This document shows positions 32,827 through 58,846 of a stretch of 64,000 nucleotides of DNA, in pieces (position 1 is the stretch's first letter; each line of letters starts with the position of its first letter). Source of the stretch: an uncultured Bacilli bacterium (GTDB taxonomy: Bacteria; Bacillota_I; Bacilli_A; RF39; UBA660); NCBI GenBank assembly GCA_944331715.1, contig CALVIP010000001.1, forward strand, positions 11,067 to 75,066, given 5' to 3'. The notes beneath the pieces are model-generated. The model saw only the letters and a list, made by a program, of their open reading frames with translations. It was not told the DNA's origin and searched no databases. The position numbers were made by a program, and so were the translations under genes.

Positions 32827-33609
32827 CTATACTTCAGTTATTATTCCTAAATCAATAAGCATAATACCAATTAAAGAAAGTGCATTAAAATATTTATTAT
32901 TTAAATATTCTTCTGATTCTTTTCTAAATATTTTTAAATTTTCCTTTTTAAAATTTGATGGATCATATTTTCTTATTCCATAAGAATACATTGTTCTATG
33001 CATATTCTCTATCGCTAACATAAGTGATTTTTCATCTATATCAGTTAATTCAGGTATTATTTCTTTCATCTTCTTTTTAGCATCCGTTGCACTACTAAAA
33101 TTAGTTTTCCAAAATTGTTTAATAAAATTTGATAATTCAAAACTTTCAACGCAAGGATAACTGAGTAATAATAATCCATTCATATCATAATCATTATCTA
33201 GGGAACTTGTAAAAGTATTAAGTGCTTTCAAAACAACATCACTAGTATTTGAATCTGCATCTCTATCCCATAAAATATATATAGGTACATTTTTCAAACT
33301 TCTATTGTACTCTTTCTTTAAAAGATTATACAATTTATCTTTATAATTTTTATCTTCCATAATTGTTTTTATATTTGAATTAGATGTATTAGCAACAATT
33401 ATAGTTGAATTTTTATTATTTTTACTTTCAAATTTGTCTTTCATTACTTTATTTCTTCTAACTTGAACATAATTATAATCCAAAATCTTTGTAAAAATGT
33501 GCTTTAATAATTTAAATTCTTCCTTTTCCCCTTCTACTACTATAACAACTTCACCAATTGATTTATTTTTATTAATCTTTAAACTCTTTATTGTATTTTG
33601 GCATTCCAT
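32827..33609 (-). CDS. divergent RloB/Toprim-like protein (partner of the upstream AAA ATPase)
   Basis: VVIVVEGEKEEFKLL (CEGexTE-like), ILWDRDAD (DxD), SYPCVESFELSNF (like RloB sNPcFElW). SD GGAG precedes the ATG at 33609. 38-nt overlap with the ATPase 3' end. Confidence 0.6.
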   Translation of the reverse strand: MECQNTIKSLKINKNKSIGEVVIVVEGEKEEFKLLKHIFTKILDYNYVQVRRNKVMKDKFESKNNKNSTIIVANTSNSNIKTIMEDKNYKDKLYNLLKKEYNRSLKNVPIYILWDRDADSNTSDVVLKALNTFTSSLDNDYDMNGLLLLSYPCVESFELSNFIKQFWKTNFSSATDAKKKMKEIIPELTDIDEKSLMLAIENMHRTMYSYGIRKYDPSNFKKENLKIFRKESEEYLNNKYFNALSLIGIMLIDLGIITEV

Positions 33610-34735
33610 CAAACACTCCATTTAAATACATTTTCTCTATATTTTGTGATTCTCTTGGATTCTCATCTGAAAATCTTTTAATTAGAGTACCTTCTTTAGC
33701 ATCAAATTTAAATGAATAAATTTGGTCTGGTCTTAAAATTGAAGTATCTAATAAATTAGTAGAATGAGAAGTAAAAAATATTTGTGAATTTCCACTATTA
33801 TTAAAGAAATATTTTATTAAAGCTTCTTCTAATTCATTATGAAGTCCACTACTAAATTCATCAACAATAATAATAGAATTATTTTTAGTTACATAATTAA
33901 TAGGTAAAATCATATTCATAAAAGATTTATTACCAGTAGATTCAAGAGGTAAAGGCATTACAAAATTAGTGCCTTTCTTTTTTAAACCAATTGTTTCTTT
34001 AGTAGAATTTATAACTATTGTTTTATCAGTATTAGAAAACTGTTTATTAAATACAACTTCACTATTATAACCTAATTTTTCAATAAGTTTATTCAATTTA
34101 GTTGCATCATTACTTTCAGCATATTTTTCTATAATTTGTTCTGGTAGTTTTACTGGATTATATGACTTTATAGTTCTTCTTCCAAATAAACAGTTAATAT
34201 ATAGAGAGTTTTTTAAAAAATCAAACCATTTATTTAAAACTATATCATTATTAAATCTTGTATTATAATATTCTAATTTTAATAAAGCTAAGCTTGGATT
34301 AATATTATCATTATCTTTTTCTTCTCCAAAATAAGTTTTACCATTTTTCTTTAATCTTTCAAGCTTTAATTCATTATTAACAAATAATTTTTCTGAATTA
34401 ATTTCATTACCTTCAAATTCAACAGAATATTTAATATCATTACCATCAACATTAAATGTATAAACCAAACTAAATTTAGTACCTTTAGTATACATTGATT
34501 TTTTTACTATAAAATTTTGTTCAGTATTATCTAATAATAAGTCAAATAATAATACTATTGCTTGTAATACTTGAGTCTTACCAGAAGCGTTTTCACCAAC
34601 AAAAAGTGCTCCTTTTAATACTCTATTATCACCAACATTTGTTTCGTTTAATATTTTAGAATTAGTAGCTTTAAAATCAAAAGTTGTTTCTTTTATAAAA
34701 GTTGTATAATCTTTTAATGTAATTCCTGTTAGCAC
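33572..34735 (-). CDS. AAA_15/AAA_21-type (ABC-like) ATPase, AbiL/PARIS-class
   Basis: Walker A GENASGKTQ, Walker B IIIVDEFSSGLH, then FFTSHSTNLL. SD AGGAAGG lies 8 nt before GTG 34735. Confidence 0.75.
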   Translation of the reverse strand: MLTGITLKDYTTFIKETTFDFKATNSKILNETNVGDNRVLKGALFVGENASGKTQVLQAIVLLFDLLLDNTEQNFIVKKSMYTKGTKFSLVYTFNVDGNDIKYSVEFEGNEINSEKLFVNNELKLERLKKNGKTYFGEEKDNDNINPSLALLKLEYYNTRFNNDIVLNKWFDFLKNSLYINCLFGRRTIKSYNPVKLPEQIIEKYAESNDATKLNKLIEKLGYNSEVVFNKQFSNTDKTIVINSTKETIGLKKKGTNFVMPLPLESTGNKSFMNMILPINYVTKNNSIIIVDEFSSGLHNELEEALIKYFFNNSGNSQIFFTSHSTNLLDTSILRPDQIYSFKFDAKEGTLIKRFSDENPRESQNIEKMYLNGVFDGMPKYNKEFKD

Positions 34736-34897
34736 TTCTATCACCTTCCTACATTATATTATATTAAATAAATGTAAAAAAAATACAATTAATTTTATTT
34801 AAATGTATTTTTTTTACACTATTATACATTGTTTTCAATATATGTCAATATTCAAAAAGAAATAATCATAACTTCTCATTATATACACACTATATAT

Positions 34898-35269
34898 CTA
34901 CTTATCATAATATGAAATCTCTATTTTATTTCCATCTAAATCTTCAATAGCAAAACAAGTATAATTATCTAAACTATTAGGAATTTTTTCAGGTTCATAT
35001 AATATTTTTGCACCTATTTCTTTACACTTATTAAAAGCTTTATCTATATCATCAGTATATAAACCTAAAACTCCATTATTTCCTATAACTCTTTTATCAC
35101 CTGTCGCTTCAACAGAAATAATACCAAAGTAAGTTCTATTATCTCTATTTTGCCAGTCAGCCCATCTATTTTCAGTTATATTGGTGGGCTCTTCTTCAAA
35201 CAGTTTTGAGTAAAATTTTATTGCTTTGGTTATATCCTCTACCACAAAGTAAAAATTATCTATTCTCAT
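34898..35269 (-). CDS. VOC/glyoxalase-family protein
   Basis: 123 aa. MRIDNFYFVVEDITKAIKFYSKLF pattern. Confidence 0.7.
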   Translation of the reverse strand: MRIDNFYFVVEDITKAIKFYSKLFEEEPTNITENRWADWQNRDNRTYFGIISVEATGDKRVIGNNGVLGLYTDDIDKAFNKCKEIGAKILYEPEKIPNSLDNYTCFAIEDLDGNKIEISYYDK

Positions 35270-35278
35270 AAGTTTCTC

Positions 35279-35797
35279 CTAATCTATCTTATAAATATAA
35301 TTATCTTTTCTTGGCTTTTCTTTCGCTTCCATATCAGGATAGCCTAATATACAGTTACCTATTCCTTCATAGTCTCCAGTAATTCCTAAAGACTTTAATA
35401 TTTCTTTTCCCTCTTCCGTTTCAAATTCTTCTTTTGCTCGATGTATCCAACAACTACCAAGTCCTAAAGAACTTGCCGCTAGCATCATATTTTCCATAAC
35501 TAGGCTACCATCATAAATATATGTAGGAACTGACTTATCTGCTAGCACTACAATTACAACAGGAGCACCATAAAAAGGATCAATATCAACTCCCATAATC
35601 TTAGCATTTAATTTAGATAGCTTATCTCTAAGTTCTTTATTAGTAATAGCAATTATTATAGGAGATTGTCTGTTCATACCAGATGGTGCATAAGTACCCG
35701 CTTTTAATACTTCATCAATTAATTCAGTAGGAACCATATCACTTTTATATTTTTTTATACTTCTTCTTTCTACTATATTTTTAATAACATCGTTCAT
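35279..35797 (-). CDS. nitroreductase family protein
   Basis: RRSIKKYKSDMVP...APSGMNRQS pattern. Confidence 0.8.
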   Translation of the reverse strand: MNDVIKNIVERRSIKKYKSDMVPTELIDEVLKAGTYAPSGMNRQSPIIIAITNKELRDKLSKLNAKIMGVDIDPFYGAPVVIVVLADKSVPTYIYDGSLVMENMMLAASSLGLGSCWIHRAKEEFETEEGKEILKSLGITGDYEGIGNCILGYPDMEAKEKPRKDNYIYKID

Positions 35798-35860
35798 TAA
35801 TTATCCCTCCTACTTTAAGTATAACATTTTACCTAAAAGAAAAATAGTATTTTTAAATTA

Positions 35861-36157
35861 CTATTTATCACAATAAATCTTATCTAATTCTTCTTCTATA
35901 TCTTTGATAGTTTTCTTTAACTTTTCAATATCAGAGCCATCATTACTTTTATCTTTACTATCAATTTTACTAGCATCAATTGTAATTTGCTGAGAAGCAT
36001 ATGTTTGCATAGTAAGACCAACTAATTGTAACCAGTTCCCAATACTATCCTGCTCTTCTAAAGACAACTTTTGTGATAGTATTAAACCTATTAAAAAGGC
36101 CGATGTCGCAAAACTATTAGGTTCAATATTAAAAAATATTCTTTCCATAAGTATCAC
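35861..36157 (-). CDS. hypothetical small protein
   Basis: ORF track only. The likely start is the internal ATG at 36148. Confidence 0.4.
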   Translation of the reverse strand: MILMERIFFNIEPNSFATSAFLIGLILSQKLSLEEQDSIGNWLQLVGLTMQTYASQQITIDASKIDSKDKSNDGSDIEKLKKTIKDIEEELDKIYCDK

Positions 36158-36202
36158 TACCTATTAAAATTATTAATCTTTATAGTATATGCAAATATTA
36201 AT

Positions 36203-37285
36203 TTATGTATTTTTATAAAAAGAACAGTTTTTATCATGGGAATTAATAATACCTATCGCCTGTAAATAAGAATAAATAATGGTACTTCCTACGAATTTCA
36301 TACCTCTTTTCTTTAAATCCTTCGATATAGCATCTGATAAATCGTTAGTAGTCTTATCTGTTTCATAAATTATTTTATCTTCAGTAAATTCTTTTAAATA
36401 ATTATAAAAACTACCATACTCATTCTTTATATCTCTAAAAATATTAGCATTACTTATACTAGCTTTTATTTTTAATTTATTCCTAATAATATCTTTGTTA
36501 TCTAGTAATTCATTAATCTTTTTATCATCATAGGACCAAACTTTATCTAAATCAAAATTATCATAAGCTTTCCTAAAACTCTCTCTTTTATTTAAAACAC
36601 ATTCCCAAGATAGTCCTGCTTGAAATGATTCTAATATTAACATTTCAAATAAATATTTATCATTAAAGTTAGGTATTCCCCACTCTTCATCGTGATATTT
36701 AATGTATATTGGATTATTTAAATTACACCACTTACATCTTTTCATAATGCTGTATGCTGTTCCTTTCTTTGGAATAAATAATTTTTCCATATTAACTTTT
36801 TCGTGTTTTAATAAATAAATTTTCTTATCAATACCACCTGCATAACCAGTTAAACTACCATTAGATCCTACTACTCTATGACACGGTATAATTATAGAAA
36901 TAGGATTATGACTAACTGCACCACCTACCGCTTGACTAGACATCTTTTTAAGACCTTTTTGTTTAGCGATAGTATCTGCAATATCTTTATAAGTAATAAC
37001 TTCTCCATAAGGTATTTCACAAAGTATCTTCCAAACACTTTTTCTAAAGTTACTACCTAAAGGATTTAAATCAAGTTCATTTATACTAGGCTCTTCTCCC
37101 TTAAAATATCTATCTAGCCACTCTTTAGTCTTAATTAATATTTCTTTTTCTTCCTCTTTTATTTCATCTTTTAAGCAAGAAAAATAATATTTCTGGCCTT
37201 CTATCCATAAACCTATTAGTTTATTGTTTTGGGAAGCTAGTAAAATATCTCCTATTGGAGATTTATAATGAGTAGTATAAATCAT
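36203..37285 (-). CDS. fusion of methylated-DNA--protein-cysteine methyltransferase (Ogt/MGMT) and DNA-3-methyladenine glycosylase I (Tag)
   Basis: N-terminal half has the IIIPCHRVVGSNGSLTGYAGG MGMT active site. C-terminal half has CKWC...YHDEEWGIP...FEMLILESFQAGLSW... (Tag). The ATG at 37285 lies 4 nt after the toxN stop (TGA-TAAA-ATG). Confidence 0.8.
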   Translation of the reverse strand: MIYTTHYKSPIGDILLASQNNKLIGLWIEGQKYYFSCLKDEIKEEEKEILIKTKEWLDRYFKGEEPSINELDLNPLGSNFRKSVWKILCEIPYGEVITYKDIADTIAKQKGLKKMSSQAVGGAVSHNPISIIIPCHRVVGSNGSLTGYAGGIDKKIYLLKHEKVNMEKLFIPKKGTAYSIMKRCKWCNLNNPIYIKYHDEEWGIPNFNDKYLFEMLILESFQAGLSWECVLNKRESFRKAYDNFDLDKVWSYDDKKINELLDNKDIIRNKLKIKASISNANIFRDIKNEYGSFYNYLKEFTEDKIIYETDKTTNDLSDAISKDLKKRGMKFVGSTIIYSYLQAIGIINSHDKNCSFYKNT

Positions 37286-37289
37286 TTTA

Positions 37290-37808
37290 TCACCCACTAA
37301 CTTTTTGCTTATTATATTCCCTACATTTTTCTTCTAATAAAGGAAAATTGCAACATCTATCCCTAACATTTTTAGGTAATTTATCAGCTTTATATAAATT
37401 ATACAATAACTTAGATTTAGTATTAATAACTTTTTTATTAGCAGTTAACCATCTAAGTTGATTTCTAAGTAGTTCTATTCTAAACATCTCACTATTTTCA
37501 TTAGCCTTTTTATCCAAATCAAATTCAACATAATTATTACTAGTAATTGGAATCATATTATTAAAATTAACTACACCAAGTTCACCATTATTTATTTTAA
37601 TTAAATCTAAAGTGTTTCTTAAACTTTTATGCTTTGGCTTTGGTGAAGATAAAGGAGCAAAGTACTCACACTTACCTATCGTAAATAATACACCTATAAA
37701 AGGTCTTAAATCTTTTGTACCTGCATTATATGAAACCTTATTATCATATTTTCTCAAATAATCACAATAAAGAGAATCAACTTTTACTATTCTTAATTTT
37801 TTATACAT
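37290..37808 (-). CDS. toxN: type III toxin-antitoxin system ToxN/AbiQ-family endoribonuclease
   Basis: SD GGAGGTG precedes the ATG at 37808. RPFIGVLFTIGKCEYFAPLSSPKPKH...NFNNMIPI...CNFPLLEEKCREY closely parallels ToxN (…YLAPLTSPKKWH…CNFSLLEEKYRDF) as I remember it. Confidence 0.85.
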   Translation of the reverse strand: MYKKLRIVKVDSLYCDYLRKYDNKVSYNAGTKDLRPFIGVLFTIGKCEYFAPLSSPKPKHKSLRNTLDLIKINNGELGVVNFNNMIPITSNNYVEFDLDKKANENSEMFRIELLRNQLRWLTANKKVINTKSKLLYNLYKADKLPKNVRDRCCNFPLLEEKCREYNKQKVSG

Positions 37809-37923
37809 AAGCACCTCCATCTAAATCAATTTTTCTTATTTATTTCTTTTATAAATTAGTGTACTATAGAGAATATATGTTCGTCAATATATAAATTTAA
37901 ATATTTTATCATACAAAATAAAA

Positions 37924-37945
37924 GATTAGAGTTTGCTCTCTAACC
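37924..37945 (-). terminator. hairpin plus U-run separating the repeat RNA from toxN
   Basis: Minus strand UUAGAG-6nt-CUCUAA (37943-37926), followed by UCUUUUAUUUUGU. Confidence 0.5.
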
Positions 37946-37947
37946 TA

Positions 37948-38066
37948 CTTTTTTAACTGCCATTTATAGAGCTGGCTTCACTCACTTTTTTAGCTGCCAT
38001 TTATAGAGCTGGCTTCACTCGCTTTTTTAGCTGCCATTTAAGGCTGGCTTCACCTGCTTTTTTAAT
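37948..38066 (-). ncRNA. toxI: ToxI/antiQ-like antitoxin RNA: 3 full plus 1 partial tandem repeats (37, 37, 35 nt)
   Basis: Units on the plus strand: 37948-37984 CTTTTTTAACTGCCATTTATAGAGCTGGCTTCACTCA; 37985-38021 CTTTTTTAGCTGCCATTTATAGAGCTGGCTTCACTCG; 38022-38056 CTTTTTTAGCTGCCATTTAAGGCTGGCTTCACCTG; then CTTTTTTAAT. They lie directly upstream (minus strand) of the terminator and toxN. Confidence 0.8.
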
Positions 38067-38163
38067 ATTATATGCAAAATTAGCATAACATAATCACTTA
38101 TGTGCTTATAATATACCATATTTTTTTAATGAAGTCTATATATTTTTTTACCATCAACACTAA

Positions 38164-39672
38164 TTAAAAATTACTATATTTCTTAAGTTCACTTCTAAAT
38201 GCAGTTCGCCTTGAATATTTTTGATAATAATTATCTATAAATTTCTCTTTATCATCAACAATCCCATTCGCTTCCATAACTTCGCCTAAAGATACAACTA
38301 GTTTTGCTGCTTTATAATATGATTTTCTATGATTTCCTTCAACTATTGCAGTTACTCTTTTATCTATTACTTCTTCTAGCCAAGTTAAATATTTATCTTT
38401 ATCCAAAAGTTCAAAATTATCTTTCCATTTATTAAATATTAAAGAATAATTATCATCTAAAAACAAAGTGTTATCTTTTATCTTAAGTCTTGAGAAAATA
38501 TCTTCTAAAACATTTAAAAACAGCCCAGATGAAATGTTATTATTTAAAACTAATATCCATAAATATACTGCTGTTTCAATGAAAGAATAAGACCAACCAA
38601 GAGATTTTTTATTGCTTAAACATATATTATAAAACTCCTCGAAATTGCCTAAAAAGAATTGAAGATAACTATAAGTATCTTTATCTACATAATTCTTATT
38701 TAATTCATTACTTTTATTACTATTTGTATTTCCTTTATTAGAGCTTATAATCTTATTAATCTTTTCTTTATATTTTAAATAATATCCATTATTAATTACT
38801 CTAAGTAAATTTGCTACTGTACTATTAGATTCAAAAGACTCAATTATATACATTTCTTTATTACTACTATCATACTTTGCCATAAACAATAATATATCAT
38901 TTCTTATAGTTAAATCTTTATCTAAATAAGATAAAGCAAGATTACCTATTCTTATCACTTCATCTATTCTTTCTTCCTTAACCAAATAATCAAATATATC
39001 AAGATATATTTTAGGGTGATTTACTGCAAAATCTTTAATATATTTTCCATAATTATTAAAGTTGTTATAAACTAAAGTTTCTTTTAATAATCTATAAGAA
39101 ATATCATCTTGTTTATCTATTAAAAGATTAATCCATGATGTAAAAAAGTCGTCAAGCTCAGTTAAAATTTCTGTACCTAATTTAAAAGAATCTTCGACAG
39201 AAACATCCTTAAAGTTTTCATTTTTAAAATAATCATATATATTTTTCGCTCTCAAACTTTTAGGTGAAGACTGATAAGTAGCATAAATTGCATAAGTACA
39301 TATAGTATATACATTTATATTAATTAAACATTCTTCTTGTAATTCTTTTAAAGATATTTCAAAAAAATCTCCACCATCATCATCTAAAAATTGATAATTA
39401 GTATAAATAATTAAATCTAATAACTCTTTAGCATACTTATATTCTTTATGATTAACTAAATTAACTGCATAATATGTCGCTTCTTTTATTAAATCTCCTA
39501 CATTATCATCATCACTATACTCCCAGATCCAGTCTCCCCAATAATAATTATCATAATCCTCATAACCTGTCGCATGAAAATAAAGATCTAAATCATCAAT
39601 CATTTTAAACTTGGTTTTATATTCTTCTATTTTTGATTCTATATTTTCTAACTTATCATCATTACCAAGCAT
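38164..39672 (-). CDS. hypothetical all-helical protein (502 aa), partner of the PrimPol-helicase gene
   Basis: ORF track. No catalytic motif recognised. No SD before ATG 39672, and the frame stays open upstream to 39780. Confidence 0.6.
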   Translation of the reverse strand: MLGNDDKLENIESKIEEYKTKFKMIDDLDLYFHATGYEDYDNYYWGDWIWEYSDDDNVGDLIKEATYYAVNLVNHKEYKYAKELLDLIIYTNYQFLDDDGGDFFEISLKELQEECLININVYTICTYAIYATYQSSPKSLRAKNIYDYFKNENFKDVSVEDSFKLGTEILTELDDFFTSWINLLIDKQDDISYRLLKETLVYNNFNNYGKYIKDFAVNHPKIYLDIFDYLVKEERIDEVIRIGNLALSYLDKDLTIRNDILLFMAKYDSSNKEMYIIESFESNSTVANLLRVINNGYYLKYKEKINKIISSNKGNTNSNKSNELNKNYVDKDTYSYLQFFLGNFEEFYNICLSNKKSLGWSYSFIETAVYLWILVLNNNISSGLFLNVLEDIFSRLKIKDNTLFLDDNYSLIFNKWKDNFELLDKDKYLTWLEEVIDKRVTAIVEGNHRKSYYKAAKLVVSLGEVMEANGIVDDKEKFIDNYYQKYSRRTAFRSELKKYSNF

Positions 39673-39794
39673 ATAAATAACTTCATCATATTTACTTTTT
39701 GGTATCTTTCTAATTAAATTATTAACAATATCTAATATTTCTTGTTTTTCTCTATTTTTAAGTTCATCATTTACTTTTTTTTAAAAATTCACTA

Positions 39795-42152
39795 CTATTC
39801 ATAACTTCCCTCACTAACTATTTCATATCCTAACTTTTCATAGGTACTCTTTCTTTTTAAAAACATATTTCTTGTCTTAGCAAAGTTATCATCAACATAA
39901 TCATATATTAATATCTCTTTTTTATTTTCATTTTTTCTATGAAGTCTTCCTGCATATTGTATAACTCTAGTCTTACCTGATATCGGCATAGTAAGAAACA
40001 AAACATCTAATTTATCATCATCAAATCCTTCTCCTATATATGAGCCTGTAGAAATTATAATCTTATTACTATTATTTAGAGTTATTTCATCATTTAATTC
40101 TTTATACTTTTTAAGAACTTTCTTACCTATACCTCCATAATATTTAAAAATATTACTAGTATACTTACTTAGTTTATCATAAATATAATCTAAATGTTCT
40201 AATCTTTCCGTTAATACTAAAATATTCTTACCATTAAGATACTCTTTTTTAATATCTTTAATTATACTTTCACTTCTTAAAATATCTTTTGCTATAAAAT
40301 CATTTATTTCATTTAACTCATAATTATCTATTTTAGGATCAGTAAAATTCAAATGACTTTTTCTAACAATTACTTTCATAGGGATATTTAACTCTTTATT
40401 GAATTTTAAAGTATCTACCTTATACCTAATATCACCACATTGCATTTTTATAATAGGTGTATGGCCATTTTCTCTTTCAGGTGTTGCAGATATTCCATAG
40501 ACATATTTAGCATTTCCTGTATTTATAGCTTGTTCAAAAGTATAAGCAGCAGTATGATGACATTCATCTATAATAATCATTCCATAATTTTTAGCAATAT
40601 CTAAAACATCTCCATTATTCCATAAAGATTTTATACTAGCAACATCTATTATATTAGTAATATTTTTCTTTTTACCACTTATCTCTCCTACTTCATCTAT
40701 ATTAAGAAAATCTTTAATTCTATCTTTCCACTGTTCAAGTAATTGAAGTTTATTAACAAGTATTAAAGTATTTACTTTTCTTTCTTCTATCAGTTTACAT
40801 CCTATAACTGTTTTACCGAATCCCGTTGGAGCACAAAGTATTCCATTATCATATTTAAGGAGTTTATCTAAAGCAAGTTGTTGTTCTTCTCTTAATTTAC
40901 CGTTAAAGCTAACTGTAATTTTTTTACCTTCACTTCTCTTATCTGTTTTAATTATTTTTATATTATTAGTTTTACAAAGATTTTCTAAATATTCATAAGT
41001 ACCTCTCGGTAACTTTAAATACTTATCATCTTCTTTACTACAGTCAATTACCATAGGCACATTATAAACGGACATTCTTAAGCTTTGTTTTTTATAAAAC
41101 TCTGGATTAGCAAAAGTAGCAAGCCTTCTAAAACTATTTTTAACAATTGAATTTAATCCTGCTTTATCAATATAGACCATATCATTTAATATTACTTTTA
41201 TACTTTTAGGATAGTCAATTTTATTTTTACTTTTAGTTAAAACTTCTTTATTCATATTAACTATCTCATGTCCTATATCTATAGTTTCATTACTTAATTT
41301 TTCTATTGTTTCAAGTACTTCACTCTCTGTTAATTTATGAATAGACTTTAAATATTCTAATTGATTTTCCACTTTCATAAAGTTTCTATCAATAAATATT
41401 GTATTACCATATTTAGAAGGTTCATTTTGAAAAGGCAAAGCTATTAAATTTCCATAACCTCCTTTAGGTAGGGTATCTTGATTAGGAAACATTCTATCAA
41501 AAGAAGATATAGATAAATTACTTATTTCCATAGTTTTAGATAATAACAAACTTCCTAATTTCCTTGCTATTATTGCTTTTATATTAGTAGAAAAGAAAAT
41601 CCATATATGTATTCCATTACCCGATCTACTTCTTTCTAATACAGCAGGTATTTTGTATTCATCACATATATTAAGAAATGCAAGAACTTCTTCTTTAATG
41701 TCATTATCACTATTTTTATTATCAAAATCTAAAGCTAAAAAATAACAAGTATCGTCAGTTAGTAAAGGATAAATTCCTATAGGTTTATTTTCATACATAT
41801 GCTTATAAATAACTTCTTTTGATAATGGTTCATTTTCTCTATATTGACAAGTTTTACATTTCTTACCCATAGTTTTATTACAAACACCTTTTTTCCATTC
41901 ATTTAGACAAGCAGGGATATAATATTTAATATTAGGATTTTCTTTATTAATAGATAAATATGGATATACATCATCTCTACCTTTAAAATAGCTCATAAAT
42001 ATTTTAACTTTTTCTTCTCTTGATAAAGATGATACTTCTTCCTTACTATCTAAAACATTAAGCATTGCTTTTAATTCATTTAGTTCGTTTTTAATATTAT
42101 TTATTGCAATTTCTTTTTCTTTAATTTTATTAATTATTTGATCTCTATTCAT
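39795..42152 (-). CDS. archaeo-eukaryotic primase (PrimPol)-like domain fused to an SF2 ResIII/DEAH-box helicase
   Basis: 785 aa. Coiled coil aa 1-40. Cys cluster C82/C91/C99/C102. AEP motifs LALDFD (139-144), SGNGIHIW (177-184), SFDRMFPNQD (217-226). Helicase motifs APTGFGKT (441-448), IIDECHH (527-533), SATPER (555-560), QYAGRLHR. SD GGGGAG upstream. Confidence 0.8.
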   Translation of the reverse strand: MNRDQIINKIKEKEIAINNIKNELNELKAMLNVLDSKEEVSSLSREEKVKIFMSYFKGRDDVYPYLSINKENPNIKYYIPACLNEWKKGVCNKTMGKKCKTCQYRENEPLSKEVIYKHMYENKPIGIYPLLTDDTCYFLALDFDNKNSDNDIKEEVLAFLNICDEYKIPAVLERSRSGNGIHIWIFFSTNIKAIIARKLGSLLLSKTMEISNLSISSFDRMFPNQDTLPKGGYGNLIALPFQNEPSKYGNTIFIDRNFMKVENQLEYLKSIHKLTESEVLETIEKLSNETIDIGHEIVNMNKEVLTKSKNKIDYPKSIKVILNDMVYIDKAGLNSIVKNSFRRLATFANPEFYKKQSLRMSVYNVPMVIDCSKEDDKYLKLPRGTYEYLENLCKTNNIKIIKTDKRSEGKKITVSFNGKLREEQQLALDKLLKYDNGILCAPTGFGKTVIGCKLIEERKVNTLILVNKLQLLEQWKDRIKDFLNIDEVGEISGKKKNITNIIDVASIKSLWNNGDVLDIAKNYGMIIIDECHHTAAYTFEQAINTGNAKYVYGISATPERENGHTPIIKMQCGDIRYKVDTLKFNKELNIPMKVIVRKSHLNFTDPKIDNYELNEINDFIAKDILRSESIIKDIKKEYLNGKNILVLTERLEHLDYIYDKLSKYTSNIFKYYGGIGKKVLKKYKELNDEITLNNSNKIIISTGSYIGEGFDDDKLDVLFLTMPISGKTRVIQYAGRLHRKNENKKEILIYDYVDDNFAKTRNMFLKRKSTYEKLGYEIVSEGSYE

Positions 42153-42181
42153 ATTGACTCCCCTTTTAATATTTGACGTAT

Positions 42182-42210
42182 ATTCTAATATTTTTTATAA
42201 GGAAAGTCAA
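42182..42210 (-). promoter_or_regulatory. sigma-A-type promoter of the PrimPol-helicase operon
   Basis: Minus strand TTGACT (42210-42205), 17 nt, TAGAAT (42187-42182). Confidence 0.5.
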
Positions 42211-42282
42211 TGAAAAAGATGGCAATAATTACCAACTCTAATTTCAAATTATTCTAATTCTTTTAATCTTTTATCTACTTCA

Positions 42283-42942
42283 TCAAAAAAAACTATAGAC
42301 TGTTGTACAACTTTCTGAATTCGATGGTGTATCTTTAATATGATTTAAATGAATGTTTTTTGCATACTTACGAACTTGTTCTAAAGAACCATATTTAGTT
42401 AATCTATGAAATATTTTCTCATCATTTTTTCTATATCTATATTTTGAACCTTTTGCCTTAAAGTATTCATTTAACTTGCTTTCATAAGATTTTCTATCCA
42501 TACCAGTATCTATATAATTAAAATATAGTAAAAACCAATACTCAATAGCTTGGTTAGACCACAAAGGAATATACCCATTTCTTTCACACATTTCTATTGC
42601 TTTATTAAATGATTCACTACTAAAACTATCTTTATCAAATACAACAAATATTTTTCCATAAGGTATTGTAGAAATTTTATATTCATCTATTTCGTTCAAT
42701 ATATCTTGAGTAGATTTTACTAAAGATGTCGTATTCATTCCCATACCTACTATTTTCACTTTTAACTTATAATCATCTTCTATCAATTCATTAATAGCTG
42801 CAACCGCTCCTTCAAAATAGTTAGGTTCTGTTTCTTTACCTTCACAAACTATAAGCCAATTACTAGATTTTTGTTTTCTAATATTTTCTTTTCTTTTATT
42901 TCTTTCTGCTCTTCGTTTTTTAAATAAATCATCACTACCCAT
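42283..42942 (-). CDS. RloB-like protein (AbiLi-type Toprim-like partner)
   Basis: LIVCEGKETEPNYFEG, VVFDKDSF, IPLWSNQAIEYWFLLYF. ATG lies 5 nt after the ATPase stop. Confidence 0.75.
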   Translation of the reverse strand: MGSDDLFKKRRAERNKRKENIRKQKSSNWLIVCEGKETEPNYFEGAVAAINELIEDDYKLKVKIVGMGMNTTSLVKSTQDILNEIDEYKISTIPYGKIFVVFDKDSFSSESFNKAIEMCERNGYIPLWSNQAIEYWFLLYFNYIDTGMDRKSYESKLNEYFKAKGSKYRYRKNDEKIFHRLTKYGSLEQVRKYAKNIHLNHIKDTPSNSESCTTVYSFF

Positions 42943-42949
42943 AATTCAC

Positions 42950-44155
42950 CTACTTATCTTCGTATGGAATAGCACCAAACTTTCCAGTTAAATATCTCTT
43001 CTCATAATCAGCATCTACTCTTAAATTTCTAAATTCTGATAATGAATATAATCTAGCTTTCCCATATTTGTCTTTTTCTACTAAATAAAGTTCATCTCTT
43101 CTTAAATCATCACTATTGAATAAAAAAGTTGAATGAGCTGTATAAATTAATTGAGCATTATTTTTATTTATTTTTTTATCTTTATACATATTAACAATTT
43201 TTTTAAATAATAACGGATGAAATTTGACATCTAACTCATCAATACATAATAACCCACCATTTTCTAAATTATTTAAAATAGTTGGCATGATATTAAATAT
43301 TTTAATAGTACCATCAGATTCATATTGTAATGGTAGTAATATATGATTTTTATTATCAATATTTTTATGTACTCCACTAAGCTTATAAGATTTATTTTCT
43401 CCACTATCACTAATCTCATCAATTTTAATACCTAATAAACAAGGATCAAATTCATTAATTATTTGTTGAAATCTTTCGTATAGTAAATTATTTTGAGATA
43501 AAAGATTAATACTTGTTTGAGGTTGAAAAACACTTTCTACTCTAAAATCAAACTTATTAATATAATTATAAATATCTCTTAAAATTCCCTTTTCTTCTTT
43601 AATCGCTACATTACTTAAAATTAATAATTTATTTGTACTTAAATTAACATTATCACTAAAAAGATTCCAAGTCTTTTCATAATTAGCATAAGAAGAACCA
43701 AAATTAACCAAGTCTTTATTTCTTTCAAAAATAATTTTTTGAGTTGCTTTAGTAGTAGAAGAAAATTTCTTTTTATATAGCCACTCCTCATCAAAGCCAT
43801 CTTTATTCATTGAAAATCCATATCTATATTCATAATCACCAAGAGAAATTGAAATTTCAAATTCACTATTTTCATTTCTAGCATTATTACTAAATGCAAA
43901 AGAAAATGTAGGTAAATCTTTATTAATATCTATTCTATTTGACATTTTAATAGTTTCAAACATAAAATGTAATGCCTCAAGTGCACTACTTTTACCAGAA
44001 GCATTCGCACCATGAATTTCTATAACTGGTAAAATTTTATTTCCATTAATATCAATTGTGGAATTAATGTGTCTTTTTTCCCAAGTTGCCATTAAATCCA
44101 AAACTGTCTCATCATAAAAACATTTATAATTTTTAAATTTAAATTGCAATAACAT
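42950..44155 (-). CDS. AAA_21-type (ABC-like) ATPase, AbiLii-type
   Basis: Walker A GANASGKSS, Walker B LLCIDELDVKFH, IYTAHSTFLF. SD AGGAAGGTG precedes the ATG at 44155. Confidence 0.75.
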   Translation of the reverse strand: MLLQFKFKNYKCFYDETVLDLMATWEKRHINSTIDINGNKILPVIEIHGANASGKSSALEALHFMFETIKMSNRIDINKDLPTFSFAFSNNARNENSEFEISISLGDYEYRYGFSMNKDGFDEEWLYKKKFSSTTKATQKIIFERNKDLVNFGSSYANYEKTWNLFSDNVNLSTNKLLILSNVAIKEEKGILRDIYNYINKFDFRVESVFQPQTSINLLSQNNLLYERFQQIINEFDPCLLGIKIDEISDSGENKSYKLSGVHKNIDNKNHILLPLQYESDGTIKIFNIMPTILNNLENGGLLCIDELDVKFHPLLFKKIVNMYKDKKINKNNAQLIYTAHSTFLFNSDDLRRDELYLVEKDKYGKARLYSLSEFRNLRVDADYEKRYLTGKFGAIPYEDK

Positions 44156-44345
44156 AATTAACACCTTCCTTTTGGCTATATTTTATCACTTTTTCATATT
44201 TTTGCAATATTTTAGGAGATTTTTTCTCTTAAAGTGTATTATTTCTTTTATATTTTATGCAATTTGTTTAATTATATGCATGTAAAATATATATACAAAT
44301 ATATTAATTCATAAAAAAACAGAACTGCTTCCAACTAAAACAATT

Positions 44346-45200
44346 CTATTTTTTATAAGCTTTCTCATTTTTACTTATTATTTCAGAATAAATATTTTCT
44401 ATCTTTTCTAATTCATTAAATTGTTCTTTAGGAGCATTTCTATTTACCATATCATTTTTAATCTTATTTATTCTTACATCATAATTAAGACAAATTTGAT
44501 CATTACTTTCATCTCTTAAGTCTTGCAATAAAGATAAATAATTATCAAGAGCCACAGGAATAGTTTTAAACTCTTTATCTATTGGTACAATATAATTTAC
44601 TTTTATACCAAGAAACAAACACTTAAAAATAAAGTCAGGTAATAAGTCATAACATTTATTATGTGTCTCTATATTTGATAATTTGGCAGTCTTACTTGAA
44701 AGTATTTCTTTTTCGTATCTTTCCCTTGTTGCAAGTAAACTTGCTAAATTTCCTCTTACCACTACATTTATAACAATATCATAATTTTTAGGTATATTAC
44801 TTATTAAGTCTATTAAACTATAATCAATTGGAGCTTTCTCCCTCAATACAGAATAACCATTTTGTATAGCATAAGAAAATAGTTCATCTCCCCATAAATG
44901 AGCATCAAAATTTGTAAGAGTTGCATAATCTGTTGGATATTTATCTAATATTTCTTTAGAGTACTTATGAAATTGACGATAATTATCAGAATTTATAATT
45001 ATATAATTAGATAAATTTGTACTATCTATATATGTAGTTTTTCCACAACCAGGTTGTCCAACTACAAACATAATAGATGAATTATTTTGAAGAGATTTAT
45101 TTACAAATAAATTTTCTTTAAGTTGTTCTAAAACTATTCTATGCTCATCTTCGAATAATTTATATTTTTCAATATTATCTTTTAATGTTTTGTTTTTCAA
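44346..45200 (-). CDS. zeta-toxin-family P-loop kinase-like protein with a ~80-aa C-terminal helical extension
   Basis: VVGQPGCGKTTY...IINSDNYRQFHKY (zeta-toxin-like Walker A plus the xDxxR region). SD AAGGAG lies 9 nt before TTG 45200. Confidence 0.6.
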   Translation of the reverse strand: MKNKTLKDNIEKYKLFEDEHRIVLEQLKENLFVNKSLQNNSSIMFVVGQPGCGKTTYIDSTNLSNYIIINSDNYRQFHKYSKEILDKYPTDYATLTNFDAHLWGDELFSYAIQNGYSVLREKAPIDYSLIDLISNIPKNYDIVINVVVRGNLASLLATRERYEKEILSSKTAKLSNIETHNKCYDLLPDFIFKCLFLGIKVNYIVPIDKEFKTIPVALDNYLSLLQDLRDESNDQICLNYDVRINKIKNDMVNRNAPKEQFNELEKIENIYSEIISKNEKAYKK

Positions 45201-45252
45201 TATTAACAACTCCTTCGTTTAACTATATTATACTATACAATTAATTAAACAC

Positions 45253-45288
45253 AAACAAAAAGCGGAGCCATAAGGCTCCTTCAGGGGG
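45253..45288 (-). terminator. rho-independent terminator with a conserved CCCCCUGAAG 5' flank
   Basis: Minus strand CCCCCUGAAG-GAGCC-uuau-GGCUC-CGCUUUUUGUUUG. Confidence 0.6.
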
Positions 45289-45403
45289 AAATATTATTAT
45301 CAGTTCGTAACAATTTAATAATTTGTTAAAGTCTTACAAAATAAGGCTTTTTCTTTTATCATAATTTACCAAAGTTTATAAAAATAACTTTATTTTTGTG
45401 GTT

Positions 45404-45432
45404 TAGTATCTAATTTTGGTATCTAGAAAAAT
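45404..45432. repeat. att-associated repeats (TAGTATCTA, TGGTATCTA) including a 16-mer shared with 54763-54778
   Basis: TTGGTATCTAGAAAAA at 45416-45431 is identical to 54763-54778. Confidence 0.6.
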
Positions 45433-45445
45433 AATCATAATTTAA

Positions 45446-48400
45446 TCATTTTTTTCGATTATAAACCATTATTTTATTTCTCTTTGTTAAAACAAACGAT
45501 GAAATAACATTTTCTGATTTTAATTTTTGCAATATCTCTAATAAATTTTGATCAACATCTATTGAAAAATTATTGTTACCAACTCCTATATAATCAAAAC
45601 CATTATTAATCATACATAAATAGTTGTTAGTTACTTCAATATTTATTTCTTCCTTGATTTTGTTTAAATAAGAATATTTTTTACTATCTTCAATATTAGA
45701 ACTAAAGATTAAGTCATTAGAAACATCACTTCTTAAATTATATTTATCATCATATGCAAGGTTAAATAATAATTCAACGTTTAGCATTGTATTTTTTATA
45801 ACTTCATTTTCAAACAATATTGATTTAATATCTTCATCTAACTCTATATTTTCAACTAATTCATTTGCTATATCTTCTATATCAAAATCATCACAATTTT
45901 CAATATAGTATTCTTTATTTAAATTAATAAATAAAACTAATAAGTCTAATGATTTACTCTTAATATAATTAAAATTATCTAAAGTTAATTCTAAAATATT
46001 ATTAGTAATGATTATTTTTAATTTATCATACTTATATTCAAAATTTATATTTTCTAAGTTTGAAATTTTACAATCAAAAGAATTTATGCTTTTTTCTAAA
46101 GTATTTAAGCTAATATACTTGTTATTTATTAAATTTACTAAAAAATCTTTTGGATTATCCAATAAGTCTACATATTCTATACTATCAATATTATTAATAA
46201 TACCAGCTAACTTTTCTGAAATATCTTTTATAAAATTATATAAACATATTACATTATTCCAATTATTATCAATTAAATCATTATTCAAAACGCATTCATA
46301 ATAATCACTAGATATTTTGCCTAAATCTTTTATTTTAGTTTTTTCCTTAATAATAATTTTATTTTTAATATTATCATCAATATTATCGTTATTAAGTATA
46401 TTCAATATAACATCTTCATCATTGCTTTGGTTATCTAATTTATCATAAACGCAATCAACATATAAATCAAAATTATCGTATATATTTTTTTTCATAATAT
46501 TTAATCTTTCATCTTCTATAATTGTTAAAAACTTATTTGAAAATTGTTCGCTTGAATTAATAGTATTTTCTAACAATAATTTCAACATATTTTCATTGAT
46601 TTCATATAAATTGTTTTTTAATATAAAATCAGAAAATTCTTTAGTACAATTTTCATCAATATTTTTAAATTTTATATTTTGTTTAATTATGGTTTCTTTA
46701 TGATTGTCATCTAACAGGGAAAAAAGGTTATAAAATTTATTATGCATACTAATATAACTAATAAATGTATTATCTGTATTTAATAAAAATTTAGGATTAC
46801 TTAGAAATATTTTTACCCATTTGTCAATATAATCTCTATTTTTACTATTTTTCAAATAACATTTTTCCCATATATTATTTTTCTTCAGCAATAAACTATT
46901 TATAAAAGATTTGCTTAGTTCACTTTTTTCTAAATAACTATCTATAAAGTCTAATTTTTCATCTGTAATGATTTCAAACTGTAATAAAATTTTATTTTTT
47001 ACACTTGATTCAACTTTGTTTTTATTATCAAATATATAATCAAACAAGTCGAAATTCAATATACTATCTGATGAATAGTCAAATATATCTAATCTATTAA
47101 CAATTTCATTTAAATTATCTAAATGGTAAGAATAATTTTCCATTTTACTATCCTTCTTTACATTTTTTACAAACTGCATATCTTGGATAGTTAAATTTCC
47201 CTCTTTAAACAATGTAATGTAATCATAATAATCACTAGAGACAAGACCACGTTTTAAAATAAACATTTCAAAATCGTTTAATTCTTCAGTTATAATGTCA
47301 ATACCATATTTCTCAATTAGTTCTTTGAGTGACATTTCTTTTATAGCTCTAATATTTTTTTCTATCAAAGTAATTTCTTTTTGTTTTTCTTCAATAACGG
47401 CTTCTTTATCACCATTTAAATTATCTAATCTTTCTATATAAGAACGTTTTCCTCCAAAAACATCAAAAATTTGTTCCTCGTTAAAATTAGCATAAGGGTA
47501 ACTACGTTTATCAAACGTCATTTTTGTATTTTTAATTTTGTCTATATCAAAATCATCTCTTAAAAATTCAGAAACATTACATTCTGCGTTATTGAAGTTT
47601 AATTTATAATTATTAAGAGTATCACTAGATAGTTTAACTAAGTTCATTATTAATACTTGTTTTAATTCAAGTACATTTAATAATTTTTCGTTTTGAATGT
47701 TATCAATTTCAGTTTGTAAATTGTCATTATCTAATTTTAATTTTTCTGTTAGTTTATTTATAATTTCGTTTTTATTTTGAATTATATTTGGTAGTGTTCC
47801 TTCTCCCTTTAACATCAATGCATATTTTTGAGGATATAAATTTTTATAAAAAAGCATTGCCATTAACTTACAATTATCTAAATCTTTATCAATAAATTTA
47901 TCACTAAATAAAATAAAATCAGCCATTATATTATTTATTGTTCTCATATCATCAACAAATATAGATATATTATTAATAAACTTTTTATCTATCTCATAAT
48001 ACATTTCATTTTCTTGTTCACCATATATGCTCTTAAATTTATCCCATATTATTTCATTTGAATTTGATAATGAAGATACAGGAATAATAGGAATAGTTTT
48101 ATCAAAAAATTTGGTTCTTTCAGTATTTTTCTCAAAAAAATCATCTTTTATTGCATAAATAAAACTTATTTTTCTTTTAATTCTTGAACAAGTATTTAAT
48201 AAATAATTTAGTTCTTTTAGCTTTTCAATAATAAATAATGCTTCATTAAATCTATCAATATCTTCAAAAATTACAACATTATAATCAGAGCACTGAAAAA
48301 AGTAAATAATTTCGTCCAAATATTTGTTAAATATCGACTCTGTTTTCCCATTTATTTCTATTTCAGCATCCTTGTATTTTAATTTACTTATATAAAAATT

Positions 48401-49057
48401 GTCTTTAATGAACTCACGTATTTTATAAATACAGAAAGCAAAAAACGTAACTATTATTCCATATAATAAACTAGTAAATAAATAATTTATATAAATATTA
48501 ATTGATTTTACTTTAAAATTTAAAACCTTTAACACTTCGTTAATATTATTGTATGGTTCAAAAAATCCTTCAAAGAAATTAGGAGCAAAAATAAATAAGC
48601 AAATTAAAACAATCAAAACAAACACAAAAGTTTCAATAAACATATCAGATTTTGAATATTTTGTAAGTCTCTTAAATCTTGATTGCGGAACTTTTTCTTG
48701 ATCTGTTTGATATAGTAATTGTTGCAAAATACTTTTTTCTATTGTTTGATGATATTCTTCTGCTTTTCTTTTTCCAATATTTTCATTATTTTTTCCATAA
48801 GAACCTAGAGTTATATTTATATATTTTCTTTTATTTTTAAAATAAGTTTTTAAAAAACTACTTTTACCAGCACCATAATTCCCAAATATTGCAATATTAT
48901 GTATATCCTCATTTTCTAAACTATAATCTAATATTTCTGAATATTCGTCGATATCAGTTGCGTTTGATGTTGGAGCTAAATTAATAAAATCCTGATAGTT
49001 ATCTACCTTTTTTAATTTTTTCACTTCGTTCACTTCCTTACTACTAAAAAACGCCAA
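45446..49057 (-). CDS. KAP-family P-loop NTPase with TM helices inserted in the NTPase domain (YobI-like, ~1200 aa)
   Basis: Walker A GNYGAGKSS (aa 59-67). Two hydrophobic helices (aa ~140-160 and ~193-212). Walker B VVIFEDIDRF (261-270). About 900 aa of helical C-terminal region. The ORF-track start is TTG 49057; GTG 49024 behind AAGGAAG is a better candidate. Confidence 0.7.
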   Translation of the reverse strand: MAFFSSKEVNEVKKLKKVDNYQDFINLAPTSNATDIDEYSEILDYSLENEDIHNIAIFGNYGAGKSSFLKTYFKNKRKYINITLGSYGKNNENIGKRKAEEYHQTIEKSILQQLLYQTDQEKVPQSRFKRLTKYSKSDMFIETFVFVLIVLICLFIFAPNFFEGFFEPYNNINEVLKVLNFKVKSINIYINYLFTSLLYGIIVTFFAFCIYKIREFIKDNFYISKLKYKDAEIEINGKTESIFNKYLDEIIYFFQCSDYNVVIFEDIDRFNEALFIIEKLKELNYLLNTCSRIKRKISFIYAIKDDFFEKNTERTKFFDKTIPIIPVSSLSNSNEIIWDKFKSIYGEQENEMYYEIDKKFINNISIFVDDMRTINNIMADFILFSDKFIDKDLDNCKLMAMLFYKNLYPQKYALMLKGEGTLPNIIQNKNEIINKLTEKLKLDNDNLQTEIDNIQNEKLLNVLELKQVLIMNLVKLSSDTLNNYKLNFNNAECNVSEFLRDDFDIDKIKNTKMTFDKRSYPYANFNEEQIFDVFGGKRSYIERLDNLNGDKEAVIEEKQKEITLIEKNIRAIKEMSLKELIEKYGIDIITEELNDFEMFILKRGLVSSDYYDYITLFKEGNLTIQDMQFVKNVKKDSKMENYSYHLDNLNEIVNRLDIFDYSSDSILNFDLFDYIFDNKNKVESSVKNKILLQFEIITDEKLDFIDSYLEKSELSKSFINSLLLKKNNIWEKCYLKNSKNRDYIDKWVKIFLSNPKFLLNTDNTFISYISMHNKFYNLFSLLDDNHKETIIKQNIKFKNIDENCTKEFSDFILKNNLYEINENMLKLLLENTINSSEQFSNKFLTIIEDERLNIMKKNIYDNFDLYVDCVYDKLDNQSNDEDVILNILNNDNIDDNIKNKIIIKEKTKIKDLGKISSDYYECVLNNDLIDNNWNNVICLYNFIKDISEKLAGIINNIDSIEYVDLLDNPKDFLVNLINNKYISLNTLEKSINSFDCKISNLENINFEYKYDKLKIIITNNILELTLDNFNYIKSKSLDLLVLFINLNKEYYIENCDDFDIEDIANELVENIELDEDIKSILFENEVIKNTMLNVELLFNLAYDDKYNLRSDVSNDLIFSSNIEDSKKYSYLNKIKEEINIEVTNNYLCMINNGFDYIGVGNNNFSIDVDQNLLEILQKLKSENVISSFVLTKRNKIMVYNRKK

Positions 49058-58140: not shown

Positions 58141-58846
<706 letters not shown>

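Follow-up and report, generated by a model that had tools for sequence, protein, structure and literature searches.

A predicted chromosomal ToxIN-family type III toxin-antitoxin module in an uncultured gut Bacilli bacterium

We describe a toxIN locus within a 64,000-nt stretch of DNA (hereafter the window) from an uncultured Bacilli bacterium (contig CALVIP010000001.1), and conclude that it is very probably an intact chromosomal toxin-antitoxin (TA) module of the type III ToxIN family, in which tandem repeats of a putative RNA antitoxin, ToxI, precede a gene for a ToxN/AbiQ-family toxin. On the minus strand and in the 5′ to 3′ direction, a promoter, a leader, 3.2 repeats, a terminator, a Shine-Dalgarno (SD) sequence and toxN follow one another in the order of a complete cassette. 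Loci of this family can be called from sequence by a set of published features (PMC3401426, PMC5086642, PMC8860590), and all of them are present here: the toxin family, a co-oriented array, a terminator, an upstream promoter (which is preferred without being strictly required), a pseudoknot unit and the active-site residues. A sequence-only reading of the window had proposed a complete type III TA (ToxIN/AbiQ-like) locus at this position, and that proposal is borne out, with the same architecture recurring in relatives. The assignment draws on the layout, on the family, predicted fold and active-site residues of ToxN, on a putative pseudoknot that covaries and is strand specific, on the recurrence of the cassette and on its location in an apparent defence island. 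The locus is an ordinary new representative of the known ToxIN/AbiQ family and an expected find for specialists; it gives the chromosome of an uncultured, small-genome gut bacterium an RNA antitoxin that is well supported and that annotation had missed. We take the locus to be chromosomal because the best related locus (99%) sits on the 1.5-Mb circular chromosome of an uncultured Bacilli metagenome-assembled genome (MAG; OZ006970.1).

The components of the cassette are as follows; in the repeat units, square brackets enclose the arms of stem 1 and angle brackets those of stem 2.

38138-38110, minus strand: putative promoter P1 (-35 TAGACT at 38138-38133, 17-nt spacer, TG at 38118-38117, -10 TATATT at 38115-38110)
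38103-38088, minus strand: leader hairpin 1, ACAUAA-GUGA-UUAUGU
38087-38071, minus strand: leader hairpin 2, UAUGC-UAAUUUU-GCAUA, its 3′ arm overlapped by TGCATATAAT (the element as a whole spans 38067-38087)
38076-38067, minus strand: possible promoter P2, TGCATATAAT, with a perfect -10 hexamer, TATAAT, at 38072-38067
37947-38065, minus strand: tandem array (Tandem Repeats Finder [TRF]: period 37, 3.3 copies, 91% matches, score 182)
38063-38029, minus strand: ToxI unit 1 (35 nt, variant), AAAAAAGC[AGGU]GAA<GCCA>[GCCU]UAAA<UGGC>AGCU
38028-37992, minus strand: ToxI unit 2 (37 nt), AAAAAAGC[GAGU]GAA<GCCA>[GCUC]UAUAAA<UGGC>AGCU
38020-38017 with 38009-38006, minus strand: stem 1 of unit 2
38013-38010 with 37999-37996, minus strand: stem 2 of unit 2
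37991-37955, minus strand: ToxI unit 3 (37 nt), with two substitutions relative to unit 2, both outside the stems
37954-37944, minus strand: partial unit 4, AAAAAAGTAGG, leading straight into the terminator (written as AAAAAAGUAGG for 37944-37954, and providing the final A-run)
37946-37913, minus strand: intrinsic terminator, with a 9-bp stem AGGUUAGAG/CUCUAAUCU, loop AGCAAA and U-rich tail UUUAUUUUGU
37887-37858, minus strand: promoter-like remnant in the spacer (TTGACG at 37887-37882, ACATATAT, TATAGT at 37868-37863, 13-nt spacing)
37818-37812, minus strand: SD sequence GGAGGTG, with 5 nt from GGAGG to the ATG
37808-37290, minus strand: toxN coding sequence (172 aa), predicted ToxN/AbiQ-family endoribonuclease toxin (ATG at 37808; stop TGA at 37292-37290, with TAA directly after)

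The toxin and its relatives

The SD sequence and the 172-aa open reading frame (ORF) behind it had been recognised in the sequence-only reading and the product placed in the ToxN/AbiQ family, and both profile and structure comparisons agree with that placement. The protein matches Pfam PF13958 (ToxN_toxin) with 151.6 bits over the full length of the profile (positions 1-159 of 159) and the PADLOC AbiQ model at 3.4e-36; among NCBIfam models there was no match. A phmmer search of the PDB returned 4ATO as closest (1.2e-20), then 2XD0 (7.7e-17), 7D8O and 4GLK, and these same solved ToxN/AbiQ structures are the top four Foldseek matches to an AlphaFold2 model of the toxin (pLDDT 88.1, pTM 0.82), with template modelling (TM) scores of 0.75-0.80. 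CptN (4RMO) lies far behind with a TM score of 0.34, and MazF is lower still; since Pfam also gives ToxN_toxin alone, we rejected assignment of the toxin to CptN or TenpN. We likewise rejected an alternative ATG at 37820, the mechanical start of the ORF, which overlaps the SD sequence, homologues beginning with MYK.

The active site of ToxN_Ec and ToxN_Pa comprises Lys33, Thr52, Ser53 and Lys55, and the RNA is held by Gln117 (PMC8860590). Alignments give R35, S54, S55, K57 and Q117 as the equivalents in the window toxin, with Q117 invariant. An Arg at the first active-site position is also found in E. coli clusters 4 and 5 (PMC8860590), and a Ser at the second is the AbiQ state, Ser and Thr being interchangeable there (PMC5086642). 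Because these active-site residues are conserved, the toxin looks catalytically competent; it also has an NNMIP segment in common with ToxN_Bt.

The toxin family is large, with 2914 database clusters at E<=1e-10, and relatives at 77-78% identity are already named by NCBI as 'type III toxin-antitoxin system ToxN/AbiQ family toxin'. Toxin sequences 94-97% identical are present in ENA metagenome assemblies, and two MAG genomes contain near-identical loci (96-99%). A scan of relatives using one genome per species yielded 30 loci (with L numbers below), among which L030 is a 23-residue fragment only, leaving 29 of full length; arrays were detected with TRF in the 500 nt upstream of each toxN. A co-oriented 34-37-nt array, usually of 3.2 copies, followed by a hairpin terminator, was found in 28 of the 29 full-length loci (29 of the 30 loci overall), the exception being L026, where two strongly diverged units (2860-2990) lie beyond TRF scoring. 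The same anatomy is present in the experimentally characterised ToxIN_Bt (34 nt x 3.1) and AbiQ/antiQ on pSRQ900 (35 nt x 2.9), and in loci from Fusobacterium, C. botulinum and L. lactis CV56.

The window's flanking genes recur in the two nearest genomes alone; in the other relatives the cassette has unrelated surroundings, and it therefore appears to move as a unit. Similarity to plasmids and phages at the DNA level is limited to ~120-200 nt inside toxN, at 69-76% identity, and nothing beyond a partial match (42%) turned up when viral contigs were searched at the protein level. Scanning IMG/VR with a pattern for a phage-encoded mimic of the window ToxI returned one match; it lay as a lone copy within a 427-aa ORF, and we dismissed it as chance. 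Among the relatives, L024 has two tandem toxN copies (2251-3492), and toxN is frameshifted in L027 and L028.

The repeat array and its predicted pseudoknots

The array stands out from the surrounding DNA, with a 25-nt core of the unit occurring twice in the 64-kb window where 0.00 occurrences are expected (100 shuffles). Three full units and a partial fourth had been reported, and this count is correct; the reported order of lengths (37, 37 and 35 nt) is reversed, as the units run 35, 37 and 37 nt in the 5′ to 3′ direction, and the short unit is promoter-proximal rather than last. A difference at only two positions, attributed to units 1 and 2, is real for the two 37-nt units, which are units 2 and 3. 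Compared with these, unit 1 has compensatory changes in both outer stem-1 pairs (G-C to A-U and A-U to G-C), and its loop 3 is shorter by 2 nt. This variant first unit is retained in L002 and in L008-L011, and it fits the behaviour of edge units that escape homogenisation while still under structural selection.

The AAAAAAG at all unit boundaries is invariant or nearly so in the unit alignment of the near clade, and it matches the A/AAAA and A/AAA cleavage specificities described for this family (PMC5086642). By analogy, ToxN would cleave within the A-run, and the A-run of partial unit 4 would be the site at which the 3′ end of unit 3 is freed; nearly every related array closes in this manner, with an A-run and a G immediately ahead of the terminator. 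The window has one other strong long-period tandem repeat, an 18/36-nt repeat (AGGGCCTACAGGACCAAC..., 58285-58395) that is consistent with a collagen-like Gly-X-Y coding repeat.

The hairpin and U-run reported after the array are indeed present, as a 9-bp intrinsic terminator with a folding energy of -9.8 kcal/mol (z -2.57). Its core, TAGAG-AGCAAA-CTCTA (window 37923-37946), is almost invariant in L003-L028, and only the outer stem pairs covary. The core is kept across loci in which ToxN is only ~50% identical and the repeat units differ, an apparent constraint at the level of sequence.

The array is most likely transcribed from P1, to judge from its consensus match and conservation. P1 has 9 of 12 consensus matches and a TG in register (TAGACT-17-TGgTATATT), and at the equivalent position TTGACA-17-TATATT is the top-scoring promoter in most relatives, with 11 of 12 matches in L008, L009, L012, L014, L017, L019 and L022. 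Leader hairpin 1 starts ~7 nt past the P1 -10, where the 5′ end of a P1 transcript is expected; the twelve loci in which the motif was found all keep its stem, with the loops GUGA, GUAA, GAAA and GAGA (all GNRA), and AUGA in L002. This pattern of stem and GNRA loop points to a transcribed RNA element rather than a DNA operator, and hence to P1. P1 and leader hairpin 1 together (window 38088-38138) occupy the same position in L002, L008-L010 and L014-L022. To our knowledge, a conserved P1 with a GNRA leader hairpin has not been described for type III TA loci.

The promoter had earlier been sought in TGCATATAAT, taken as an extended -10-like element, and this interpretation does not hold: the TG lies two bases before TATAAT (TGnnTATAAT), one base out of the extended -10 register (TGnTATAAT), and there is no accompanying -35, the best candidate matching at 2 of 6 positions. 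P2 is a possible second promoter, and we note that GCATATAAT-like motifs recur in many relatives and that GCATATAAT is the -10 of the B. thuringiensis locus. The extent previously given to the locus, 37290-38100, includes the array, the terminator and the toxin, and leaves the better-conserved promoter at 38138-38110 outside.

Each unit can form two interleaved 4-bp stems, with loops of 3 nt, 0 nt (1 nt with the U·G pair open) and 6 nt, the final loop of unit 1 being 4 nt. Blower et al. based a ToxI pattern on the crystal structure of ToxI_Pa and an alignment of 39 ToxI sequences (PMC3401426): stems have 3-4 bp, loop 1a-2a has 3-4 nt, loop 2a-1b is short and loop 1b-2b, in Group I, has <=7 nt; the loop lengths of the window units (3, 0-1 and 4-6 nt) match the Group I pattern.

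We tested covariation within clades because an all-clade MAFFT alignment is mis-registered, with the stem-2 3′ arm one column off from clade to clade, and a structure-fitted alignment would be circular. For the near clade, 19 distinct units were aligned with MAFFT without fitting to any structure, and 99.3% of the cells are in standard pairs. Both sides change in 4 of the 8 pairs, between G-C and A-U at two stem-1 pairs, and between G-C and A-U and between C-G and G-C at two stem-2 pairs; 17 cells are changed on both sides, against 5.2 expected, and neither the observed pairing nor the observed covariation score was reached by any of 500 shuffles. When the 3′ partners are slid by 1-3 columns, pairing falls to 14-44% (maximum 43.5%), with 0-1 covarying pairs. 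At one stem-1 pair, every one of the 19 rows has U·G; only the toxN-sense strand can therefore adopt the fold, and a reading at the level of DNA is excluded. A second clade, with other repeat sequences, has stem 1 100% paired with both-side changes in 2 of 3 pairs; its stem 2 is 87.5% paired, because MAFFT mis-registers six rows.

For 52 of 56 distinct units, among them those of ToxI_Bt, antiQ, Fusobacterium, C. botulinum and CV56, an automated search for H-type pseudoknots within the published loop ranges recovers the same stem positions; in most cases, no more than a few of 200 shuffles equal the score of the unit itself. The 56 distinct units provide natural covariation support for the ToxI pseudoknot, and are a possible seed for a broader covariance model.

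Proposed mechanism, genomic setting and rival readings

By analogy with ToxIN_Pa, ToxIN_Bt, ToxIN_Ec and AbiQ, we predict that a constitutive promoter, most likely P1 (38138-38110), transcribes the short hairpin leader and the repeat array, and that the terminator halts most transcripts, leaving the antitoxin RNA in excess while read-through supplies the toxN mRNA. ToxN would then cut the precursor inside the A6 runs, giving 35-37-nt pseudoknots with single-stranded A-rich tails. Phage infection, by stopping host transcription or speeding RNA decay, would lead to loss of the labile ToxI, and the freed ToxN would cleave A-rich RNAs and arrest growth (abortive infection). Toxicity, neutralisation, repeat processing and phage defence by abortive infection are each predicted here from the characterised homologues.

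The neighbouring genes, listed from upstream to downstream of toxIN, are these.

45446-49057, minus strand: Tmn/YobI NTPase
44346-45209, minus strand: zeta-toxin-like kinase
42950-44164, minus strand: AbiLi
42283-42942, minus strand: AbiLii
39795-42152, minus strand: TOTE-type archaeo-eukaryotic primase (AEP)/helicase
38164-39672, minus strand: 502-aa ORF between the TOTE gene and toxIN, immediately upstream of the latter, 93-94% conserved in the two nearest genomes
36203-37285, minus strand: fusion gene for Ogt (O6-methylguanine methyltransferase) and Tag (3-methyladenine glycosylase I), beginning 4 nt after the toxN stop
33572-34744 and 32827-33621, minus strand: second AbiL-like pair

The listed genes lie within ~12 kb of toxIN, and the minus-strand region from 32827 to 49057 appears from its gene content to be an anti-phage defence island. 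The 502-aa ORF (38164-39672) has no match in Pfam, NCBIfam or PADLOC, and may be a partner of the TOTE protein. No terminator lies between toxN and ogt-tag. In the two nearest genomes (L001, 3512-4601; and L002), ogt and tag are separate overlapping genes, and a 4-5-nt indel removes the ogt stop in the window. Nitroreductase and glyoxalase genes are also in the neighbourhood, on the same strand.

Several observations weigh against interpretation of the locus as an intact, canonical ToxIN module. The spacer from the terminator to toxN, at 105 nt, exceeds that of characterised loci, and from the array end to the ATG there are 140 nt in the window vs 42-68 nt in characterised and plasmid loci. 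There are two candidate array promoters, P1 and P2. Single units give no signal in nested thermodynamic folding (z about +0.3), and when nested minimum free energy folding is applied both to them and to leader, array and terminator as a whole (z -0.05 to +0.36), the terminator alone stands out; this null is expected for short pseudoknots, and the structure therefore rests on covariation and analogy. Moreover, the repeat unit does not match the Rfam ToxI family: the Rfam 15 model RF02519 (34 nt; gathering score 50 bits) has no match to the array at E<=10 (37200-38300), and none at the gathering score in the whole window. As a positive control, the model scores the ToxI_Bt units at 59.2, 47.1 and 37.2 bits and antiQ at 26.8 bits, and it is silent on the Fusobacterium, C. 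botulinum and CV56 arrays. RF02519 is narrow, and its miss argues against membership of that Rfam family, not against the ToxI class; the miss also bears out the claim that the antitoxin RNA is invisible to annotation. Four weak Rfam matches (mir-1244, InvR, SprD and a viral pseudoknot) were discarded as chance. Most ToxI-type arrays are missed by RF02519 even where the toxin gene is named automatically, and annotating ToxI RNAs would call for a broader model.

We considered whether the same machine could have been selected for addiction, stabilising the genomic island that carries it, rather than for abortive infection. ToxIN_Bt promotes plasmid retention (PMC4615649), the unrelated flanks in all relatives but the two nearest genomes suggest selfish mobility, and no phage-borne copy or mimic of the window repeat was found in IMG/VR or the viral-contig scans. 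The cassette nonetheless sits among the anti-phage systems AbiL, Tmn and TOTE, and ToxIN_Pa and AbiQ are demonstrated abortive-infection systems (PMC5086642). The defence-island setting therefore favours an anti-phage role, and the addiction role is compatible with the same evidence; the two are not mutually exclusive, and we regard addiction as the selected role as possible, if doubtful. Decay is evident in some relatives, as in the toxN frameshifts of L027 and L028 and the two diverged units of L026, and the window locus could in principle be such a remnant, with a non-toxic toxin or repeats that no longer neutralise it. We think this very improbable, as the ORF is intact, full length and has its active-site residues, the terminator and SD sequence are intact, both stems are kept in all three units, by compensatory changes where the units differ, and closely similar toxins and loci are present in the ENA assemblies and MAG genomes noted above. 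Least credible of all is a role for the repeats as DNA, as iterons or repeated protein-binding sites. Tandem 35-37-bp repeats beside a promoter could in principle bind a regulator, yet covariation preserves an interleaved two-stem RNA fold, the invariant U·G would be C·A on the opposite strand, the array is always co-oriented with toxN with the terminator always following, and the cassette has no gene for a DNA-binding protein.

The long spacer raises another arrangement, in which toxN is expressed from its own promoter downstream of the terminator, uncoupling toxin synthesis from that of the antitoxin. Near-consensus sigma-70/A-type promoters lie between the terminator and toxN in several relatives (L008, L011, L013, L014, L017-L025 and L029); matches reach 12/12 in L008 (TTGACA-18-TATAAT, P<0.001), 11/12 in L011 (P=0.006) and L029 (P=0.013) and 10/12 in the L017 group (P=0.04), and the window retains a homologous TTGACG...ACATATAT...TATAGT. 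The window element is nonetheless at chance level, with a best match of 9/12 (P=0.50) and hexamers 13 nt apart, on which grounds we rejected an own toxN promoter in the window. Promoter-like matches are also common in DNA of ~25% GC (12 found vs 9.4 expected), and reviews describe a single promoter for type III loci (PMC5086642). This wiring is quite improbable for the window, and given the chance-level spacer element with its 13-nt spacing, we continue to read the locus as a single operon of the canonical kind. For the wider clade of gut Bacilli/Tenericutes-like bacteria, it is a somewhat less remote, still unlikely, proposition that the wiring of toxIN departs from the textbook scheme of a single promoter and attenuation at the terminator, because of the GNRA leader hairpin, the invariant terminator core and the separate near-consensus toxN promoters in many members, the last apparently decayed here. 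Were these features functional, the levels of toxin and of antitoxin would be independent of each other, and a role in sensing or stability could fall to the leader or the terminator. Modest interest attaches to the conservation of the leader hairpin, to the invariant sequence of the terminator and to the additional toxN promoters of relatives.

Comparison with characterised type III systems

CptIN and TenpIN follow the same logic of repeat, terminator and toxin; the window toxin lies outside both families. The founding members of the ToxIN family, ToxIN_Pa (P. atrosepticum pECA1039, 2XD0/2XDB) and ToxIN_Ec (7D8O), have the same fold (TM 0.75-0.80), gene order, terminator-based attenuation and pseudoknotted antitoxin, and the equivalents of Ser53, Lys55 and Gln117 are kept in the window toxin. 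The ToxIN_Pa array has 5.5 copies of a 36-nt unit. These systems differ in that cleavage is at AA/AU or GAAAU and not inside a pure A-run, and in the toxin, where Lys33 is replaced by Arg and Thr52 by Ser here, and Trp57 and Phe88 are not conserved.

AbiQ/antiQ (L. lactis pSRQ900, 4GLK) has the ToxN-family fold (TM 0.77) and 2.9 copies of a 35-nt unit, followed by a terminator and then the toxin; the Ser at the ToxN Thr52 position (S54 here) is Ser51 in AbiQ (PMC5086642). AbiQ cleaves at an A-rich site, A/AAA, and is a demonstrated abortive-infection system. It differs in having 29% identity to the window toxin, a shorter A-run (AAAA then UU), 42 nt from the array end to the ATG, and a plasmid location.

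ToxIN_Bt (B. thuringiensis pAW63/pBMB74, 4ATO) is the best solved-structure match by sequence (1.2e-20), with fold TM scores of 0.75/0.77. Its protein identity is only ~30%, its 34-nt units are of unrelated sequence and score 37-59 bits with RF02519 whereas the window array has no match, and it is plasmid-borne whereas the window locus appears to be chromosomal; its promoter lies 8 nt from the array without a leader hairpin, and 62 nt rather than 140 separate the array end from the start codon. In other respects the two loci are alike: about three repeats, a terminator and then toxN, a variant first unit, an A-run that opens the units and fits the A/AAAA specificity of ToxIN_Bt (PMC5086642), the same H-type pseudoknot layout, and the NNMIP motif.

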